Assembly: GCA_047602405.1 (NCBI GenBank)
Contig: JASGHJ010000002.1
Coordinates: 3,008,001-3,072,000 of the forward strand
Source of the DNA: Anaeromyxobacteraceae bacterium
Lineage (GTDB): Bacteria > Myxococcota > Myxococcia > Myxococcales > Anaeromyxobacteraceae
Reading direction: 5' to 3'
DNA length: 64,000 bases
Translations under genes and position numbers: made by a program
Part shown: positions 44,913 to 54,158 of the stretch, in pieces
How positions within the stretch are numbered: position 1 is the stretch's first letter
Layout: each line of letters starts with the position of its first letter
Notes under the pieces: model-generated
Told to the model about the DNA's origin: nothing
Seen by the model: only the letters and a program-made list of their open reading frames with translations
The model's database searches: none

Positions 44913-44941
44913 GGCGGTGGGCCCGGTATAGCATCCCGCGC

Positions 44942-45902
44942 ATGCTGAACGACGACGCCCTCCGCGCCCAGCTCCCGCACTGCCTGCGCCAGCTCGACCT
45001 GCCCGCCCTCGGCGAGCTCTACCGCGGCAAGGTCCGCGACAACTACTCCCGCGGCGACCGGATCGTGATGGTCACGACCGACCGGGTCTCCGCGTTCGAC
45101 CACGTCCTCGGGACCATCCCGTTCAAGGGCGAGGTCCTGTCGCGGCTCACCTCCTTCTGGTTCGAGAAGGTGAAGGACATCGCGCCCACCCACCTCGTGG
45201 ACGTGCCGGACCCGAGCGTGATGGTCGTGAAGCGCGCGAAGGCGCTGCCGGTCGAGATCGTGATCCGCGGGTACATCACGGGCTCCCTCTGGCGCGACTA
45301 CCAGGCCGGGAAGGCGGGCGCGTACGGCATCGCCTGGCCGGCGGGCCTGAAGAAGGACCAGCGGTTCGACCAGGCGATCATCACGCCCTCGACGAAGGCG
45401 GAGTACGGCAAGCACGACGAGCCGATCAGCGAGGCCGAGATCCTGAAGCAGGGGCTCGTGACCCCGGACATCTGGAAGGAGGCGACCGCGGTCGCGCACC
45501 GGCTTCTTCCAGCGCGGCCAGGAGTGGGCGAAGACCCGCGGCCTCATCCTCGTCGACACGAAGTACGAGATGGGGATCGCCGACGGGAAGCTCGTGGTCA
45601 TCGACGAGATCCACACGCCCGACTCGTCCCGCTACTGGGTCGCCGACGGCTACGAGGACCGCTTCCAGCGGGGCGTCGAGCAGCAGATGCTCGACAAGGA
45701 GAACATCCGGCAGTGGCTCATCACCGAGCACGGGTTCTCCGGCCACGGCACGCCGCCCGCGCTCACCGACGAGGTCCGGGTGATGCTCGCGCGGACCTAC
45801 CTGCAGCTCTTCGAGCGGCTGACCGGCCAGCCGTTCACCTCCGAGGTCGGCTCGGTCGCCTCCCGCATCGAGAAGAACCTGAAGGCGAAGCAGTACCTCT
45901 AG
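44942..45902 (+). CDS. purC: SAICAR synthetase; +1 frameshift at ~45504
   Basis: YRGKVRD, TDRVSAFD, TPSTK, VDTKYE and DEIHTPDSSRYW. Removing one T gives 320 codons. Confidence 0.9.
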
Positions 45903-45905
45903 GCC

Positions 45906-46808
45906 GTGCGCCGCCTCGCCGGCCCCGGCCCCCTCGGCCTCGCGGTCGTCGCGCTGGCGCTCGGCGCCTGCGGCGGCGCGGGCGATCCCGCCCCGGCCGG
46001 CGCCGACCCGCTCGTCTACGGCGGCGCGCGGCCGGTGCGGCTGCAGGTGCCGGCGTCGGTCGAGCCGGGCAAGACGTACCCGCTCGTGCTGCTCGTGCAC
46101 GGGTACGGCGCGAGCGGCACGCTGCAGCAGCTCTACTTCGGCCTCGGCCCCTCGACGCTCCCGGGCGGCGCCTTCCTGCTCGCGCCGGACGGGACCTCCG
46201 ACGGGTCCAGCCGCTTCTGGCACGCGAACGACGTCTGCTGCGCGTTCGGCCCCGCGCAGCCGGACGACGTCGCCTACCTGGGCGGCCTCCTCGACGCGGT
46301 CGCCGCCGAGTGGCCCATCGATCCCGCGCGCGTGCTCGTGCTCGGCCACTCGAACGGCGCCTTCATGGCGTACCGGCTCGCCTGCGATCGCGCCGACCGC
46401 GTCACCGCCATCGCCGGGCTCGCCGGCGCCGCGAGCTCGATCGACGGCTCCGGCTGCGCGCCCGCGAAGCCGGTGAGCGTGCTGCACCTGCACGGCACCG
46501 CGGACCAGACCGTCGCCTACGGCGGAGGCATGCTCCTCCCCGGCGGCCCCGCGTACCCGGGCGCGGTCGCCTCGACCGAGCAGTGGGCCGCGCACGACGG
46601 CTGCGGCACCTCCTGGACGGCGGGCGCCGCGCGGGATCTCGTCTCGACCCTCGCGGGCGCGGAGACCGCGACCGCGGCCGCCGGCGGCTGCCCCGCGGGC
46701 GTCGCCGTCGAGCGCTGGACGATGACGGGCGCGCCGCACGTCCCCGCGCTCACGGCCGACTTCTCGGCGCAGGTGCTCGGCTGGCTCGCGGAGCACCCGC
46801 GGCCGTGA
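45906..46808 (+). CDS. LpqC/PHB-depolymerase-family esterase lipoprotein
   Basis: Lipobox LGAC; LVHGYG, DDVAYL, GHSNGAFMA and LHGTAD. Confidence 0.85.
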   Translation: MRRLAGPGPLGLAVVALALGACGGAGDPAPAGADPLVYGGARPVRLQVPASVEPGKTYPLVLLVHGYGASGTLQQLYFGLGPSTLPGGAFLLAPDGTSDGSSRFWHANDVCCAFGPAQPDDVAYLGGLLDAVAAEWPIDPARVLVLGHSNGAFMAYRLACDRADRVTAIAGLAGAASSIDGSGCAPAKPVSVLHLHGTADQTVAYGGGMLLPGGPAYPGAVASTEQWAAHDGCGTSWTAGAARDLVSTLAGAETATAAAGGCPAGVAVERWTMTGAPHVPALTADFSAQVLGWLAEHPRP

Positions 46809-46818
46809 CCGCCGCCGG

Positions 46819-48417
46819 TCAGCCGGCGTAGCGCCCCGGCAGGAGCGCCGTCCACCCGTCCTCGCGCGAGAGCGCCGCGGGCTTCACGTCGCCCGCGCGC
46901 CGGCCGCGCCGGCGGCAGGCCTCGTAGTACGCGGCCGCGGCGTCGCCCTCGACCACGTAGACGCGCGCCGGCGCGAGCTGGCCGAGCCGGACGCAGTGCA
47001 GGTAGTGGAAGCTCTCGCCGAGCGCGGCCTCGAGGCGGGCGCCGAGCGGCGCCGCGCCACCCGGGCCCACGGCGGCCCGCGCGACGTAGAGGGTGGTCGC
47101 GGGCGGGCCCCCCGACGCGTCCGGCGCGAGGAACGCGAGCCCGGGGCCGAGGCCCAGCCCGGCGAGCACCCGCGCCGCGAAGCCCTCGTGCAGCTTCTCG
47201 CCGCACCGGTCGAGGACGAGGTCCTCCTTGCCGACGAACTCGAGCGTCGGCGTCCGCGCGAGGAGCCCGGTCACGCGCACGCGGTCGAGGAGCCGGTAGC
47301 GCCACAGGCCGCCGCCGGTCGTGACGACCACGGAGCCCTCGTCCCCCTCGCGCCAGCGCTCGAGCGGGACGGGCCCCTGCCCCGGCAGCTCGAGCTCGAG
47401 GTAGTGCGAGCGCACCGCCGCGGGGCGGGCGCCGCCGAACGGGATCGACACGACCGCCTCGGTGGCGAGGAGCCCCTTCGCCTCGAGCGGCACGCCGGGG
47501 AGGAGCGCCTCGAGGTCGCGGGCCGGCGCCGCGGAGGGGCCGTCCGCCCAGGCCGAGACGAGCGCGAGGCGGGGCCAGACCGCCTGGAGGCCACGGGCGA
47601 GCGCGCGCTCCACCTCGCGGGCCCGCGCCGGCGCCGGGGCGAGCGGCGGCAGCGGGCCCTCGGCGGCCGCGCCGTCGCGGAGCGCGGCGAGGTGCGGCCC
47701 GGGGTCGTCCCGGAGCGGCGCGAGGAGGAGCGTGAGGAAGGTCGGGCTCCAGACCGAGAGGAGCCGGAGCTCCCGCGCGCGCAGGAGGTGCTGCAGCGTG
47801 CGCGCGCGCCAGGCGCCGAGGTCCTGGAGGTGGCGCACCGCCGAGGGCACCGCGAGCGTGGCCTCCACGAGCCGCCGCGCGGCGGCGCCGAGGTACTCGG
47901 CGTCGTCCTCGAAGCCGATGCGCGCGCCGCCGGCGGTGCGGCGCTCGCCCGCCGCGGCCGGGCTCACCGACCAGTACGCGGGGCCGAGCGCGAGCGCGGG
48001 ACGGCGGAGCGTCATGTCCGCGAGCCAGGGGCGGAGCGCGCGCTGGAACTCGTCGCGGAGCGGGGCCGGGTACGGCACGAGCTTCGTCGCGGCGGCGCTG
48101 CCGCTCGAGGGCTGGAAGAGCGGGACCGGCGCCGCCGAGAGGACGCCCGGCTCACCCGCGGCGGCCCGCTCGATCCACGGGAGGAGCCCGTCGTACGCGC
48201 GCGGCGGGACCCGCTCGAGGAACGCCCGCGGCGACGCGCCCGGCCCGAGCCCGTGCTCGCGCAGGAACGCGGCGCCCCCGTTCGCGCCGAGGATGCGCGC
48301 GAGCACCCCGGCCTGCGCGCGGGCCGGGTCGCCGAGCGCGGCGCGGAAGGCCCGCCACGCCGGGAGCATGGAGGCGAGGAGCGCGGCGTTCCCCGCGGCG
48401 GCGAGCGGCGCGAGCAC
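46819..48417 (-). CDS. GH3-family acyl-adenylate-forming amido synthetase
   Basis: FQPSSGSAAATKLVP, KGLLATEA, TTGGGLWRYRLLD and DRCGEKL. Confidence 0.85.
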   Translation of the reverse strand: MLAPLAAAGNAALLASMLPAWRAFRAALGDPARAQAGVLARILGANGGAAFLREHGLGPGASPRAFLERVPPRAYDGLLPWIERAAAGEPGVLSAAPVPLFQPSSGSAAATKLVPYPAPLRDEFQRALRPWLADMTLRRPALALGPAYWSVSPAAAGERRTAGGARIGFEDDAEYLGAAARRLVEATLAVPSAVRHLQDLGAWRARTLQHLLRARELRLLSVWSPTFLTLLLAPLRDDPGPHLAALRDGAAAEGPLPPLAPAPARAREVERALARGLQAVWPRLALVSAWADGPSAAPARDLEALLPGVPLEAKGLLATEAVVSIPFGGARPAAVRSHYLELELPGQGPVPLERWREGDEGSVVVTTGGGLWRYRLLDRVRVTGLLARTPTLEFVGKEDLVLDRCGEKLHEGFAARVLAGLGLGPGLAFLAPDASGGPPATTLYVARAAVGPGGAAPLGARLEAALGESFHYLHCVRLGQLAPARVYVVEGDAAAAYYEACRRRGRRAGDVKPAALSREDGWTALLPGRYAG

Positions 48418-48424
48418 GGCCGCC

Positions 48425-49210
48425 CTACCCGCGGAGCAACCGGCGCCCGGCGCCGGAGAGGTTCTCCGGGGAGACCTCGCAGAGGCAGGCGAGCTCGTCG
48501 CCGCGCGCGTGCCCGGGATCGAGCCGCGCGAAGAGCTCGACCGCGGGATCGCGGAGGCGCGCCTCGGTCACGTCCCCCACCCCGGGCTTCAGCCGGTGGA
48601 CGGAGCGCTCGAGGCGGATGACGCCGGTCGCCGCGTCGAAGCGCGCGCCGTACCGCTCGCGCGCGACGAGCGCGAGCCGCGCGGCGAGGTCCGGGGCGGC
48701 CTCGCGGGCCGCGGGGTGGTGGCGGCGGAAGAGCGTCGCCATCACCCGGTAGGTCCGGTGACCGGACGCGATCAGGAACCAGTCGAGCGGCTCGCCCGGC
48801 GCCTCGGCGGCCGCCGCGAGCGCACTCCGGAGCCAGGTCCGGATCGCGACCGGCGAGCGCCACGCGACGGGGTCGACGATCGTGTCGCCGCTGAAGAGCA
48901 CGCGGCGGCCCGTCGCCGCCGAGCGGTAGGCGAGCAGCGTCGAGAAGCCGCGCACCGCGCCCAGGCCGTCGGTGACGAGGACCACCCGGTCCTTCTCGTC
49001 GAGGTCGCGCTCGAAGTCCTCCCGGACCACGCCGTCGTAGTGGCGCTCGAGGAGCGCGAGCATCCCGGCGCGGGTCGCGCGGTCGAGCAGGCGCACCGGC
49101 ACGCAGGCGCCCGAGAGCGCCTCCTCGGGCGGCACGGGCTCGTGGAGCGGCACGGCCTTCTCGCCCGACGGGGTCCGGGCGGCGGGCGCGGCGAGCGTGG
49201 TGACGGTCAC
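48425..49210 (-). CDS. Hypothetical protein, probable GNAT-like fold
   Basis: FERDLDEKD, VRGFST, LFSGDTIVDP, WFLIASGHRTYR and PGHARGDELACL. Confidence 0.65.
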   Translation of the reverse strand: MTVTTLAAPAARTPSGEKAVPLHEPVPPEEALSGACVPVRLLDRATRAGMLALLERHYDGVVREDFERDLDEKDRVVLVTDGLGAVRGFSTLLAYRSAATGRRVLFSGDTIVDPVAWRSPVAIRTWLRSALAAAAEAPGEPLDWFLIASGHRTYRVMATLFRRHHPAAREAAPDLAARLALVARERYGARFDAATGVIRLERSVHRLKPGVGDVTEARLRDPAVELFARLDPGHARGDELACLCEVSPENLSGAGRRLLRG

Positions 49211-50295
49211 AGGAGGGCGACCTCCGGCGCGAGCGGGCGACCGTCGAGCGCCGCCACCCGGGCGGCCCCCTCGACGCGGTAGACGGCGAAGACGGTGGAC
49301 GGGTACGCGCGGTGGCGGTGCCGGCGCGCCCCGGCGAGGAGCGGGTGCCCCGCCGCGAGGCCGAGGAGCAGCACCCGGAGCCCGCGCCGGTGGGCGAGGT
49401 CGAGCGCGGCGTCGAGGAGCGCGCCGAAGGCCGAGGGGTCGTCGCCGCGCGCGTGCGCGAAGGCGAGGAAGCCCGCGGCGAGGGTCTCGCCCACCGCCGG
49501 CAGGAGCGCCGCGGCGCCCGGGAGCCAGCGCAGGAGCGGCCGGGCGAGCCGGACGGCGCGGGAGTGGCCGCGCACGACGGTCTGCTTGAACGCCCGCTGG
49601 TCCCAGAGCGCGCCCGCCGCGGCGAGGGTGCCGCCCTCCTCCACGACGAGGAGATCACCCGGGCCGAGCCCGCGCGCGCGCGCGGGGCACGCGAGGCGCG
49701 CCCCGTCGAGCCGCGGCGCGAGCTGGAAGCGGCGGGCCTCGCCGTCGAGGAACGCGGCCACCTCCGGGAGGCGCTCCGGCGGGCAGGCGCGGGCGGACGG
49801 CGCGCCGCGCGCAGGGCGGGTGGCGAGCGCCAGCGTGACGAGCTCCCCGAGCGGCCGGTAGGTGGGCACGCCTGCCCGGCCGCTCGAGAGGAGGCGCCGC
49901 GCGCGCGGGTTGTCGCCCACGATGGCGGTGAAGTCGAAGGGCAGCTCGTCCGGGTCGCGGGCCGCCTCCAGCCGGCGGAAGCCGTCGCCCAGCAGCGCGA
50001 GCTCGCCCCGGGCGCCCGGCTGGATGCGGAGCTGCCCGAGGTAGCCCACCCGCGCCGGCGCCCCGTCCACCCAGGCATCCCGCACGGCCCGCGCCGCGAA
50101 GCCGACCACCCGCCCCTCCCGCCGCCCCACCACGACCGCGTGGCGGTCCCCCTCCACCTCCGCGGCGTGGCGCCAGTCCGGCTCGCGCTCGAACGCCAGC
50201 GAGAGCGGGCCCGGGAACGGCGTCTCGCGCAGGATCCGCCGGAGCTCCGGCTCGTCCGCGGCCGCCATGGGCCCGAGCTCGACCGTCGCGCTCAC
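49207..50295 (-). CDS. Tandem GNAT-like N-acyltransferase-fold protein
   Basis: LAFEREP, VGYLGQLRI, TAIVGDN and LWDQRAFKQ; GTGA overlaps at both ends. Confidence 0.7.
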   Translation of the reverse strand: MSATVELGPMAAADEPELRRILRETPFPGPLSLAFEREPDWRHAAEVEGDRHAVVVGRREGRVVGFAARAVRDAWVDGAPARVGYLGQLRIQPGARGELALLGDGFRRLEAARDPDELPFDFTAIVGDNPRARRLLSSGRAGVPTYRPLGELVTLALATRPARGAPSARACPPERLPEVAAFLDGEARRFQLAPRLDGARLACPARARGLGPGDLLVVEEGGTLAAAGALWDQRAFKQTVVRGHSRAVRLARPLLRWLPGAAALLPAVGETLAAGFLAFAHARGDDPSAFGALLDAALDLAHRRGLRVLLLGLAAGHPLLAGARRHRHRAYPSTVFAVYRVEGAARVAALDGRPLAPEVALL

Positions 50296-51644
50296 TGGAC
50301 CTCGAGGAGCTCCGGCGGCGCGGCGGCGTCGCCGAGGGGGTGGCCATCGCGGAGCGAGATCTCGTCGTGGTGCAGTACGTTCGCGAAGAGGTAGCCCGCG
50401 GCGCGGCGGAGCGTGGCGCGGTTCCCGGGCGCCAGCAGGCGGGCCGCGGTGGAGCGCCAGGAGTAGAAGGCGCGCCGGGCGTCCAGGCACGCGCCGCGCA
50501 GCGTCTCGGGGCTCATCCGCGCCGGCCGGTAGGCCACCTGGCCGAAGCGGTAGCCGGGGTCGAGCCACCAGCGGTCGAAGAGGAGGCGCCCCTCGCGCGC
50601 GAGCCGGTCGTGGAGCGGCGTGCCGGGGAACGGGGTGAGGTGCGCGAACGCGGCGAGGAACATGCCCGACTCGCGCGCGAGCGCGAGCGACGGCGCGAAG
50701 GCGTCCGGGCCGTCCTGCTCGTAGCCGGCGACGAAGGTGCCGTAGACGGCGATGCGGTGCCGGCGCAGGTTCGCGAGCGCCCGCGCCACCCGGTCGCCGC
50801 CGTTGAAGGTCTTCCCCATGGCGCGGAGCACCTCGGGGTCGGTCGTCTCGAGCCCGATGAGCACGCCCTGGCAGCCGCTCCGCGCCATGCGCGCGACGAG
50901 GTCCTCGTCGAGGGCCGCGTGGATGGAGCACTGCGAGATCGAGGGTGCCCGCACGGTGGCGAGCCCGTCGAGGAGCTCCCTCGCGCCGGAGAGGTCGGCG
51001 GTGACGTTGTCGTCGACGAGGAACACGAGCGGGCGCTCCGCCCAGGCGGCGGCGACGTCCGCCACCACCTCGTCCACCGGGCGGGTGGTGCGCGACTGGC
51101 CGTAGGCCGACTGCACCGCGCAGAACTCGCAGTGGTAGGGGCAGCCCCGCCCGGACTCGACGAGGCCGATGGGGAGGTAGCGCCGGCCGCGGTAGAGGGT
51201 GCGGTCCGGCCGGACGCCGCGGAGCGCCGGGCGCGAGGTCGAGCGGTAGACGCGCTCGCCGCGCCCGTGGCGCCAGTCGTCGACGACCCTCGGCCAGAGC
51301 ACCTCCGCCTCGCCCACCACCGCGGAGTCGGCGTACCGCGCGACCTCGTCGGGCTGGAGCATCGCGTGGAAGCCGCCCATCACCACCGGCACGCCGCGGC
51401 GGCGGTACGCGCTCGCGATCTGGTAGGCGCGGCGGGCGGTGTAGGTCTCGACGGAGATGGCGACGAGGTCGGTCGGCGCGTCGTAGGGGATCTCCTCCAT
51501 GCGGTCGTCGTGCAGCACGACCTCGACGCCGCGCGGCGTGAGCGCGGCCAGCACCGCGAGCTGGAGCGGCTCCATCTGCCAGCTCCTCAGGTACCGCTCG
51601 CCGGGCCGCCGGCCGATGCAGGGCTGCACGAAGCTCACGCGCAC
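50292..51644 (-). CDS. B12-binding radical SAM protein (second of pair)
   Basis: VVMGGFHA, VGEAE, GRGCPYHCEFC, FLVDDN and TPFPGTPL. Confidence 0.9.
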   Translation of the reverse strand: MRVSFVQPCIGRRPGERYLRSWQMEPLQLAVLAALTPRGVEVVLHDDRMEEIPYDAPTDLVAISVETYTARRAYQIASAYRRRGVPVVMGGFHAMLQPDEVARYADSAVVGEAEVLWPRVVDDWRHGRGERVYRSTSRPALRGVRPDRTLYRGRRYLPIGLVESGRGCPYHCEFCAVQSAYGQSRTTRPVDEVVADVAAAWAERPLVFLVDDNVTADLSGARELLDGLATVRAPSISQCSIHAALDEDLVARMARSGCQGVLIGLETTDPEVLRAMGKTFNGGDRVARALANLRRHRIAVYGTFVAGYEQDGPDAFAPSLALARESGMFLAAFAHLTPFPGTPLHDRLAREGRLLFDRWWLDPGYRFGQVAYRPARMSPETLRGACLDARRAFYSWRSTAARLLAPGNRATLRRAAGYLFANVLHHDEISLRDGHPLGDAAAPPELLEVQ

Positions 51645-53090
51645 GGCGCCCTCCGGGGCTCGTCGGCGGGGGCGGCGGCGGACGCCGCGACGGCGGCCGC
51701 GGCGGGCGCCGCGACGGCGATGGGCCCGGCCGCGGCGGCGCGCTCGAGGGGCGACGGCGGCGCCGGGCTGAAGCCGACGATCCAGTCGCAGGTGTAGAAG
51801 CGGTGGAGGTTGCGCGCGTAGAAGCGGTAGCCGAGGTTCGCGGCGAGGAGGAGGTGCGGGTCCACCCGGGAGCGGAGGAGCCGCGAGGCGATGCTGCGGA
51901 GCCGGTAGGCGTGGCGCCAGGCCCGCTGGTGGCCCTCCTCGAGCTCCCGCACGGTCATGTTCCTCGGCTGGAAGACGACGTGCTGGGCGTCGTAGAGCTC
52001 CCAGTTCCGCGTGAGGATCCGGCCCTCGGCGTCGAGCCGCCGGTGGAGCGGCGTGCCGGGGAACGGCGTCACGATGGCGAAGCGCGGGAGATCGATGGCG
52101 GCGTCCACCGCGAAGCGCGCGGTCTTCTCGAAGACGTCGGGGGTGTCGTCGTCGAGCCCGAACGCGAAGCAGCCCATGAGCGCGATGCGGTGCCGGTGGA
52201 GGTCCGCGACGAGCGCCTTGTAGCGCTCGGGGTCGTTGAAGCCCTTCCGCGTCTTCGCGAGCGAGGCCTCGCAGAGCGACTCGAGCCCGATGAGCAGGCC
52301 CGCGCAGCCGCTCCGCGCGGCGAGCGCGAGGAGGTCCCGGTCGAGGCCGATGAGGGTCGTCGCGAGGCCGTACCAGCGGATGCGGAGCGGCACGAGCGCC
52401 TCGAAGAGGCGCGCCGCGTACCGGGTGTCGGAGACGAGGTTGAGGTCGATGAAGAGGACCTTCGGGGCGCCGAAGCGGCGGATGTCCTCGACGACGTCCT
52501 CGACCGGCTTCTGATGCTGCCTGCGCCCCCAGGCGGCGGGCGCGACGCAGAACTCGCAGTCGTGCGCGCAGGAGCGGGTCGCCTCGAAGACGGCGCGGGT
52601 GAAGTACTTCGCGGGATTCGAGGAGCTCGCGCCGCGGGAAGGGCAGCCCGGCGAGCGAGAGGTGCTCGCCCTGCGCGTAGCGCGGCGCGAGGCGCCCGGC
52701 CGCGAGGTCGCGCAGGAGCCGCGGCCAGGTCTCCTCGGCGTAGCCGGTGACCACCGCGTCGGCGTGCGCCTGGGCCTCGTCCGGCACGAGCGTCGGGTGC
52801 GGCCCGCCGAGCACCACCTTCGTCCCGCGGGCGCGGAGCCGGTCGGCGATGGCGTAGCCGCGGAGCGAGGAGCCGGTGATGAGCGTGATGCCCACGAGGT
52901 CGGCGTCGATCCGGTCCGGGTCGACGTCCTGGATCCCCTCGTCGAGGAGCTCGACCTCGGCGTGCAGCTCCGGCGGGACGTAGGCGGCGAGCGTCGTGAG
53001 CGTGAGCGGCCCGTAGCGGAGCGAGCGGCCGAAGATGCCGCCGCGGTGCCGGTAGAGCGGGCCCTTCGGAGAGACGAGCGCGATGCGCAT
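51635..53090 (-). CDS. B12-binding radical SAM protein (first of pair); +1 frameshift at ~52617
   Basis: VVLGGPHPT; after removing one base at GATTC 52615-52619 reads LDPAKYF...TRSCAHDCEFC...TPFPGTPL (485 codons). Confidence 0.88.
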
Positions 53091-53209
53091 GGGACCTCCT
53101 CGGGAAGGATGCCGCGGGCCGGGCCCGGTGTGACGTCATGGTGAACCCTCCTGGGCACCCGGTCGAGACCGCCGTTGCCACGCGGACCGATACCCGGTCT
53201 CATGGCGGC

Positions 53210-54158
53210 ATGCGCACGCGCTCCACGCTCCTGGCCCTCGCGGCCCTCCTCTCCTCGTCCCCGGCGCTCGCCCACGAGCGCGTCCTCCTCGCCCAGTCCG
53301 GCAAGCCCGCGCCCGCCCCGGAGAAGATCCACCGGGTCGAGAAGCTCGCCGACGACGTCTACGCGATCATCACCGACCGCGGCGGCAACATGGGCCTCGT
53401 CGTCGGCGACCGGTTCTGCGTCCTCATCGACGATCAGTTCGAGCCGCTCGTGCCGGGGCTCCTCGCGGCGATCCGCACGGTGACCCGGAAGCCGCTCAAG
53501 TACCTCGTGAACACGCACCACCACGGCGACCACACCGGCGGCAACCTCGCGCTCGAGCGGCAGGTGCAGGTCATCGTCGCGCACGCCAGCTCGCGCAGGA
53601 ACCAGGCGGCCTCGCCCATGACGGCGGAGGCGGCGAAGAAGGGCGGGCTCCCGGAGCTCGTGTTCGGCGAGGCCGACCCGAAGGCGAAGGCGATGCTGGC
53701 GATCTACCTCGGTGGGATGGAGCTGCACCTCGTCCACCAGGCGCCGGCCCACACCGACGGCGACCTGATGGTCGGGATCCCGCAGCGCCACGTGCTCTTC
53801 GCGGGCGACGTCTTCTTCAACGGGATGACCCCGTTCATCGACACCTCCGCGGGCGGCAGCCTCGCCGGCTACCTCGAGAACCTCGACTACCTGCTCTCGT
53901 TCGTCCCGGACGACTCGAAGGTGGTCCCCGGGCACGGCCCGGTCGGCACGAAGGCCGACCTCGCCCGCTTCCGCGACTTCCTCGCCGCCGTGCAGAAGCA
54001 CGTCGCGGCGAGCCCCGGGAAGACCGGCGCGGAGCTCGCGGCGAGCTTCGACCGCAAGGCCTTCCCCGGCATCACCGACATCCCGAACTTCCTCTCCTGG
54101 GAGGCCTTCTTCGATTCTCGCCGCCGGGCGGCCGCCTCGGCTCCCGAAGGGGAAGTGA
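53210..54158 (+). CDS. Secreted metallo-beta-lactamase-fold hydrolase; +1 frameshift at ~54115
   Basis: NTHHHGDHTGGN, AHTDGD, FAGD and VPGHG. Removing one T gives FDLAAGRPPRLPKGK-stop and removes a ~400-bp overlap with the GH2 gene. Confidence 0.85.

Follow-up and report, generated by a model that had tools for sequence, protein, structure and literature searches.

What does an operon make in which two cobalamin-binding radical enzymes are encoded together with two acyltransferase-like proteins and an adenylating amide synthetase? The question is raised by a 64,000-nucleotide stretch, hereafter the window, of an Anaeromyxobacteraceae genome of 6.16 Mb in two contigs (assembly GCA_047602405.1, contig JASGHJ010000002.1, positions 3,008,001 to 3,072,000), which encodes two B12-binding radical S-adenosylmethionine (rSAM) proteins, rSAM1 and rSAM2, two proteins of the GNAT fold, GNAT1 and GNAT2, and a protein of the GH3 family. 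These five genes constitute a real and widely shared bacterial pathway, whose core, as judged from sequence, comprises GNAT2 and GH3 plus GNAT1 and not the rSAM pair, which appears to be an optional tailoring module. We hold with roughly even confidence that the cassette turns fatty acids of the cell itself into an envelope lipid, amide-linked and based on an amino acid, which is then tailored by radical chemistry. A first-pass annotation of the window had proposed a compact pathway without a polyketide synthase or non-ribosomal peptide synthetase core, leading to an acyl-amide or modified lipid, and this remains the best reading.

Conservation and composition of the cassette

Scanning of GTDB genomes with GNAT2 confirmed 158 loci, and most locus counts given here rest on the best 80 of these. 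The co-oriented order rSAM-rSAM-GNAT1-GNAT2-GH3, whose conservation the first-pass annotation had left to be checked, was found in 43 of the 54 loci long enough to accommodate the five genes, with inserted genes in some of them (the script gave 44, from which L046, with one split rSAM gene, was dropped). These loci are spread over at least eight phyla, namely Myxococcota, Acidobacteriota, Planctomycetota, Verrucomicrobiota, Desulfobacterota, Chloroflexota, Bacillota and Deinococcota, and a GNAT2 profile retrieves 918 clusters at E up to 1e-30 (50%-identity representatives). Within the phylum of the window, a GNAT2 match is present in 109 of 301 genomes and in 85 of 125 genomes of one family, inferred to be Myxococcaceae; these tallies include genome G217, and about a fifth of the matches are weak and distant. 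The closest named relative of the locus is carried by an Anaeromyxobacter metagenome-assembled genome (L016; 93% in GNAT2), and only 3 of 36 other genomes of the window's genus hold a GH3 match. E. coli genomes gave no match to a 3.9-kb part of the Citrobacter copy.

In 71 of 75 loci the core gene that follows GNAT2 is GH3, and the two are fused into a single protein in three separate cases (P0242, P0270 and P0299). An rSAM gene is absent from 4 of 36 fully flanked loci, and GNAT2, GH3 and GNAT1 occur together without rSAMs in Burkholderia arboris (L096) and Acinetobacter baumannii (L099). Among 20 myxobacterial loci examined, the 16 with strong matches contain GH3 in 15 cases, a Rieske oxygenase in 14 and rSAMs in 1. 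Because the core thus occurs without an rSAM in Acinetobacter, Burkholderia and many myxobacteria, the rSAM pair is a tailoring module. Three of the four weak-match myxobacterial loci were scanned and encode a GNAT2-like domain fused to a cyclic-nucleotide (cNMP)-binding domain; these N-terminal fusions (L141:8464-9927, L142:9279-10790 and L144:9347-10873) possibly represent a cyclic-nucleotide-regulated acyltransferase family.

A desaturase, Rieske, AurF-like or cytochrome P450 gene is also held by 13 of the 23 fully flanked two-rSAM loci, by one of four four-rSAM loci and by three of four rSAM-less loci. The idea that rSAM1 and rSAM2 are a plain anaerobic stand-in for oxygenases was hence rejected, since more than half of the two-rSAM loci carry such genes too; only the extra rSAM pair of the four-rSAM loci may replace oxygenases, on very small numbers. 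This extra pair belongs to a third and a fourth rSAM clade, and the loci holding it include a Citrobacter plasmid. A small ParE-type toxin-antitoxin pair lies inside one four-rSAM version of the cassette (L150:5390-5925). Directly next to GNAT2-GH3-Rieske, most rSAM-less myxobacterial loci encode a membrane protein of 950 aa (NQR2/RnfD-like, with FG-GAP repeats and ASPIC/UnbV; L131-L140, L082, L088 and L149). Two further arrangements were observed: in Rivularia (L042:9938-20636), GNAT2 and GH3 accompany three Rieske oxygenases, two ferritin/AurF-like proteins, an OlsE-like hydroxylase and a hexapeptide membrane protein, with no GNAT1 or rSAM within the stretch examined, and in Azospirillum (L098:8316-10813) a GNAT2 homologue follows ABC/SPFH genes, a male-sterility-type reductase and a SET-domain gene, with no GH3 in the 20 kb examined.

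In the window (Table 1), coordinates and junctions agree with the earlier description of five co-oriented genes that overlap or lie at most 7 nt apart: rSAM1 and rSAM2 share 10 nt, rSAM2 and GNAT1 share 4 nt, as do GNAT1 and GNAT2, and the gap between GNAT2 and GH3 is 7 nt, while GC content at third codon positions (about 0.9-1.0) tracks the reading frames of the five genes. A promoter and terminator scan found nothing, and none of the five proteins reaches an NCBIfam cut-off. The operon is flanked by a convergent lipoprotein esterase gene (45906-46808, plus strand; polyhydroxybutyrate-depolymerase-like, below cut-off) and by a gene for a secreted metallo-beta-lactamase-fold hydrolase (53207-54118, plus strand; SoxH-related, below cut-off). 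Their membership had been left open and was rejected for both, because among 99 loci only those of the nearest relatives have them next to the cassette.

Table 1. Operon features by position in the window
Feature	Position	Strand	Details
rSAM1: B12-binding, radical SAM (CAHDCEFC) and DUF4070	51635..53090	-	484 aa when read through the frameshift; Pfam
rSAM2: B12-binding and radical SAM (CPYHCEFC)	50292..51644	-	450 aa; Pfam
GNAT1: tandem-GNAT acyltransferase, N-myristoyltransferase-like fold, C-terminus EVALL-stop	49207..50295	-	362 aa; model
GNAT2: single GNAT fold with insertion; invariant FSGDT and GDELxC motifs	48425..49210	-	model, alignment
GH3-family adenylating amide synthetase	46819..48417	-	532 aa; motifs SSGS, KGLLATE, YRxxD
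GAGGAGG, Shine-Dalgarno-like, 4 nt 5' of the rSAM1 ATG	53095..53101	-	sequence

GNAT1, GNAT2 and the GH3 synthetase

The two GNAT-like proteins were recognized as such by the first-pass annotation, and structure models show GNAT folds in both, despite a sub-threshold GNAT match only for GNAT1 and no Pfam family for GNAT2. For GNAT1 the resemblance is more specific. With its AlphaFold model (pLDDT 94.5) as query, all matches listed by Foldseek are N-myristoyltransferases (NMTs; best E 9e-13, TM 0.62), and yeast NMT comes first in a VIA search (Z 22.2, rmsd 3.7, 299 residues aligned), with residue 362 of GNAT1 ending on residue 455 of the NMT chain; Fem-type aminoacyl transferases reach Z 12-13. 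In NMT, according to the available part of a published account, acyl-CoA is bound in the N-terminal half and the C-terminal carboxylate acts as the base (PMC7048800). GNAT1 shares with NMT (PDB 2p6e, 1iyl) the tandem GNAT fold, aligned to the last residue, and an invariant chain end that fits a carboxylate base; it differs in being bacterial, in its small-molecule operon and in an identity of 11-14%, with no NMT Pfam match and nothing at E under 0.78 in a PDB profile search.

The chain end itself is strikingly constant. All 120 GNAT1 homologues listed, in a listing that allowed lengths up to 634 aa, end exactly four residues past a conserved Glu/Asp, with Leu as the last residue in 119 and Ile in one; the same pattern is found in 70 of 73 locus copies and the remaining three end in the same register, while GNAT2 tails, taken as control, range from 20 to 79 residues. 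In distant rSAM-less GNAT1s (one fragment of the split L147 gene set aside), the last residue varies (P, A, S, V, I) and the register is kept. A conserved end position with a free side chain is what a catalytic alpha-carboxylate would predict, and on the model and this analogy GNAT1 likely works like NMT, with its terminal carboxylate as the putative base.

GNAT2 resembles NatD (Z 13.0), LasI (11.5) and FeeM (10.6) most closely, and atlas look-ups returned unnamed or generic GNAT clusters only. The assignment of the last gene to GH3 stands: PF03321 scores 86.8 and PF23571 (GH3_M) 40.3, each against a cut-off of 23.6, with GH3_C at 15.9, below its cut-off, and the nucleotide motifs are kept, in variant form, across 70 sequences. 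The family profile matches plant GH3 amido synthetases (JAR1, GH3.6) at E of about 1e-40; motif II, however, is KGLLATE in place of the plant-type YASSE, and there is no hormone context.

Of the known systems, the nearest is the ornithine-lipid route of OlsH and OlsI (with or without OlsG), which the cassette would resemble in its mode of action, but membership in it fails. OlsH of Singulisphaera acidiphila is described, in the available part of its report, as a bacterial GH3 making N-acyl-ornithine (PMC12493201), and the likeness lies in a GH3 that spends ATP on an amide bond in lipid synthesis. An alpha/beta-hydrolase-like gene, whose O-acyltransferase role is inferred from motifs, accompanies 15 of 80 cassette loci as a further likeness. 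The cassette GH3, however, scores 19.3 bits against the OlsH family NF052613 (cut-off 620), none of the five genes encodes an OlsI-type alpha/beta-hydrolase acyltransferase, no OlsG is present in the operon, and the cassette GH3 is tied to two GNATs, one of them NMT-like, and to B12-rSAMs or oxygenases.

The radical SAM pair and the interrupted rSAM1 frame

Both rSAM proteins combine a B12-binding domain (42.9 bits in rSAM1 and 34.1 in rSAM2; Pfam cut-off 32.1) with a Pfam Radical_SAM domain bearing an intact CxxxCxxC motif, as first annotated, and both thus belong to the B12-rSAM class, within which they form separate paralogous clades (FastTree). This class holds methylases as well as non-methylases, according to the available part of a survey (PMC9204698). 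The lipid and pigment enzymes HpnP/HpnR, HpnJ, BchE and the ladderane B12-rSAM, together with AprD4, have the B12-binding Rossmann domain and the motif in common with the pair, further likenesses being the DUF4070 tail of rSAM1 and the paired paralogues. However, rSAM1 and rSAM2 approach no family cut-off, with best scores of 54-68 bits against models of HpnJ, HpnR, BchE, the ladderane rSAM and AprD4, whose cut-offs are 251-650 (HpnP had no model in the output and is left out of this comparison), and methylase and non-methylase are indistinguishable on this basis. Their best PDB sequence match is AprD4 (E 3e-12), an enzyme reported to work without cobalamin. The window genome contains B12-dependent mutases and no CobS match. 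The acyl-amide or modified lipid of the first-pass annotation therefore stands, but its qualification as methylated is not established, because the nearest families include non-methylases (BchE, HpnJ, AprD4) and all scores amount to about a tenth of the cut-offs; methylation would be the likeliest guess only. A third B12-rSAM (44% to rSAM1) is encoded elsewhere in the window genome (G000:C1:533515-537054), followed after 6 nt by a gene for a 738-aa probable membrane protein, MMPL-like as read, in a separate two-gene unit.

The reading frame of rSAM1 is shifted by a single additional base at about 52616, and a real frameshift in a decaying operon had been named as a possible refutation of the pathway. 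The sequence comparisons make an assembly error much likelier than decay, because relatives are in frame and one-base insertions far outnumber deletions in the window genome. The rSAM1 gene of L016 (94% identity) is intact, with one base different at the frameshift site, and the extra base is absent from contigs of about 94% identical strains in three of four runs, the fourth being without coverage there. A blastn comparison of 170 open reading frames (ORFs; 212 kb) with close-relative DNA (G010 loci L114-L130, L015 and L016) yielded 33 non-triplet indels in 29 ORFs, of which 21 are net +1 in the window genome, 3 net -1 and 9 larger; the ORFs had been chosen as open in the relative and some of them are over-called frames, a bias that does not account for the 21:3 skew. 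One such insertion, at 45505, splits purC (SAICAR synthetase; window 44936-45902, plus strand) and is absent from a 98% identical relative, and what we take to be an lpxA-like gene is also among the +1 set. Such errors occur about once per 10 kb, a rate that gives a chance of about 46% of one in the 6.3-kb operon. That rSAM1 is truly broken in this strain and the operon decaying, whatever its role elsewhere, is very improbable: no raw reads of the strain were found that could overrule the extra base, but it is absent in relatives, the insertion skew extends to purC and the other four genes are intact.

Candidate product and its significance

From these components a pathway of three steps can be proposed. 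GNAT1 would acylate a free alpha-amino group with a long chain taken from acyl-CoA, using its C-terminal carboxylate as base in the manner of NMT. GH3 would then use ATP to adenylate a carboxylate, either of a fatty acid or of the N-acyl amino acid from the first step, and join it to a second amine, while GNAT2 would work with GH3 and probably add another acyl group or pass on an intermediate; these two steps could run in either order. Finally, rSAM1 and rSAM2 would each act on the completed lipid at an unactivated carbon, with C-methylation as the likeliest reaction and ring formation or oxygen-free oxidation as possible ones. Versions in other genomes are extended by desaturases, by Rieske or di-iron oxygenases, by head-group transferases or by an exporter.

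The neighbours of the cassette, including the AmfAB pump of A. baumannii, point to an amide-linked lipid. In the 80 loci, they comprise fatty-acid desaturases (27), PAP2 proteins (27, sometimes fused to the desaturase), SnoaL-like proteins with a C-terminal hydrophobic tail (23), Rieske oxygenases (22), a Pfam-less protein with alpha/beta-hydrolase-like motifs as read (the gene in 15 loci noted above), AurF-like proteins (8), a small membrane protein (8), a hexapeptide protein (7), cardiolipin-synthase-like phospholipase D (PLD) proteins (4) and cytochromes P450 (3), and fatty-acid-hydroxylase genes adjoin GNAT2 in three myxobacterial loci. Several observations weigh against the lipid proposal. 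The window copy is without a carrier protein, acyl-CoA ligase or lipid-specific gene, and accessory genes of the cassette type have no close homologue in the window genome by tblastn except one Rieske gene, although unrelated desaturases and PAP2 genes are present. The mycobacterial tandem GNAT 7q3a ties with NMT within 1 Z in the VIA search (Z 21.4; aligned to the GNAT1 model up to residue 343 only), and because other tandem GNATs tie in this way the fold does not fix the acyl chain length. GNAT2 has no standout structural relative, its best Z being the 13.0 of NatD, and the scores of the rSAM pair, about 60 bits, are low beside family cut-offs of 250-650. The GH3 of the legionellol cluster, Lol1, which like the cassette GH3 is bacterial and lies beside acyl-handling genes and a major facilitator superfamily (MFS) pump, is dispensable, its knockout being without effect according to the available text; that cluster, however, has ketosynthases and an acyl carrier protein and no GNATs or rSAMs (PMC5640695). 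In A. baumannii, lastly, the efflux pump and outer-membrane channel fit a secreted product equally.

The gene order there is emrA-emrB-GNAT2-GH3-TolC-like-GNAT1 (L099:7165-14841), and the start of emrA is an exact match to the forward primer published for AmfAB (PMC10812440, available part). The same source reports that the pump has no effect on antibiotic minimal inhibitory concentrations but helps cells to grow at pH 4.6 and changes the permeability of the envelope, and its authors describe an operon without an outer-membrane channel (PMC10812440). Contrary to that operon, a TolC-like channel gene lies two genes downstream of AmfAB in L099.

Export genes of this kind (EmrA-like, MFS and TolC-like) inside the A. 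baumannii cluster, together with an HlyD/FtsX exporter flanking GNAT2 in L079 and the patchy distribution in the window's genus, typical of specialised metabolites, would be expected if the same chemistry led to a small secreted acyl-amide, such as a surfactant, signal or antibiotic, and not to a membrane lipid. We consider this unlikely, if by no means negligible, as the commonest neighbours are PAP2, PLD, membrane desaturases and membrane-anchored SnoaL proteins, no exporter adjoins the window copy, and presence in 19 of 19 members of one myxobacterial genus sample is more like a housekeeping envelope trait. The NMT fold of GNAT1 with its NMT-type fixed C-terminus, the N-terminal acetyltransferases among the best fold matches of GNAT2 and the methylation of peptides, too, by B12-rSAMs could alternatively mean that GNAT1 is a genuine bacterial N-acyltransferase of proteins or peptides, in a cassette that makes or modifies a lipidated peptide or protein. 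This is improbable, since no small precursor gene, protease or peptide exporter was seen among recurrent neighbours (ORFs of at least 90 aa), which are lipid enzymes instead, and the acetyltransferase matches of GNAT2 do not stand above other GNATs. Somewhat less probable again is that an existing hydrophobic scaffold, such as a sterol, hopanoid or carotenoid, is amidated, oxidized and methylated by the cassette: neighbouring Rieske proteins match SdmA/KshA models weakly, P450s or sterol-desaturase-type genes occur in some loci, and rSAM1 has DUF4070 and weak HpnJ/HpnR scores, but every score is far under its cut-off, cyclase and terpenoid genes are not recurrent in the neighbourhoods examined, and the hosts include Acinetobacter, Citrobacter and Geobacteraceae.

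An amide-linked envelope lipid is hence still preferred. A bolder form of this proposal, possible but doubtful, is that the cassette defines an undiscovered amide-lipid class of hundreds of species, made by a bacterial NMT counterpart and a GH3-GNAT pair, in which the B12-rSAMs carry out oxygen-free ring formation or oxidation and not plain methylation. In line with the first-pass statement that no characterised cluster has this composition, no description was found in the open full-text literature, a search with subscription papers, MIBiG and most supplements outside its range, and the pathways listed in the available part of an amino-lipid review include none of this kind (PMC12971839). The cassette is real and appears undescribed, and the chance that it makes lipids of a new class is fair. 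The family is large and present in tractable organisms, and its rSAM-less three-gene core makes the question directly testable. Its product, if found, would be a new class of lipid or amphiphile, whose rSAM-modified forms are possible biomarkers, and would give substrates for two to four orphan B12-rSAM clades; it is also a candidate natural cargo of the AmfAB pump of A. baumannii, and a bacterial NMT-like enzyme would bear on the origin of NMT.

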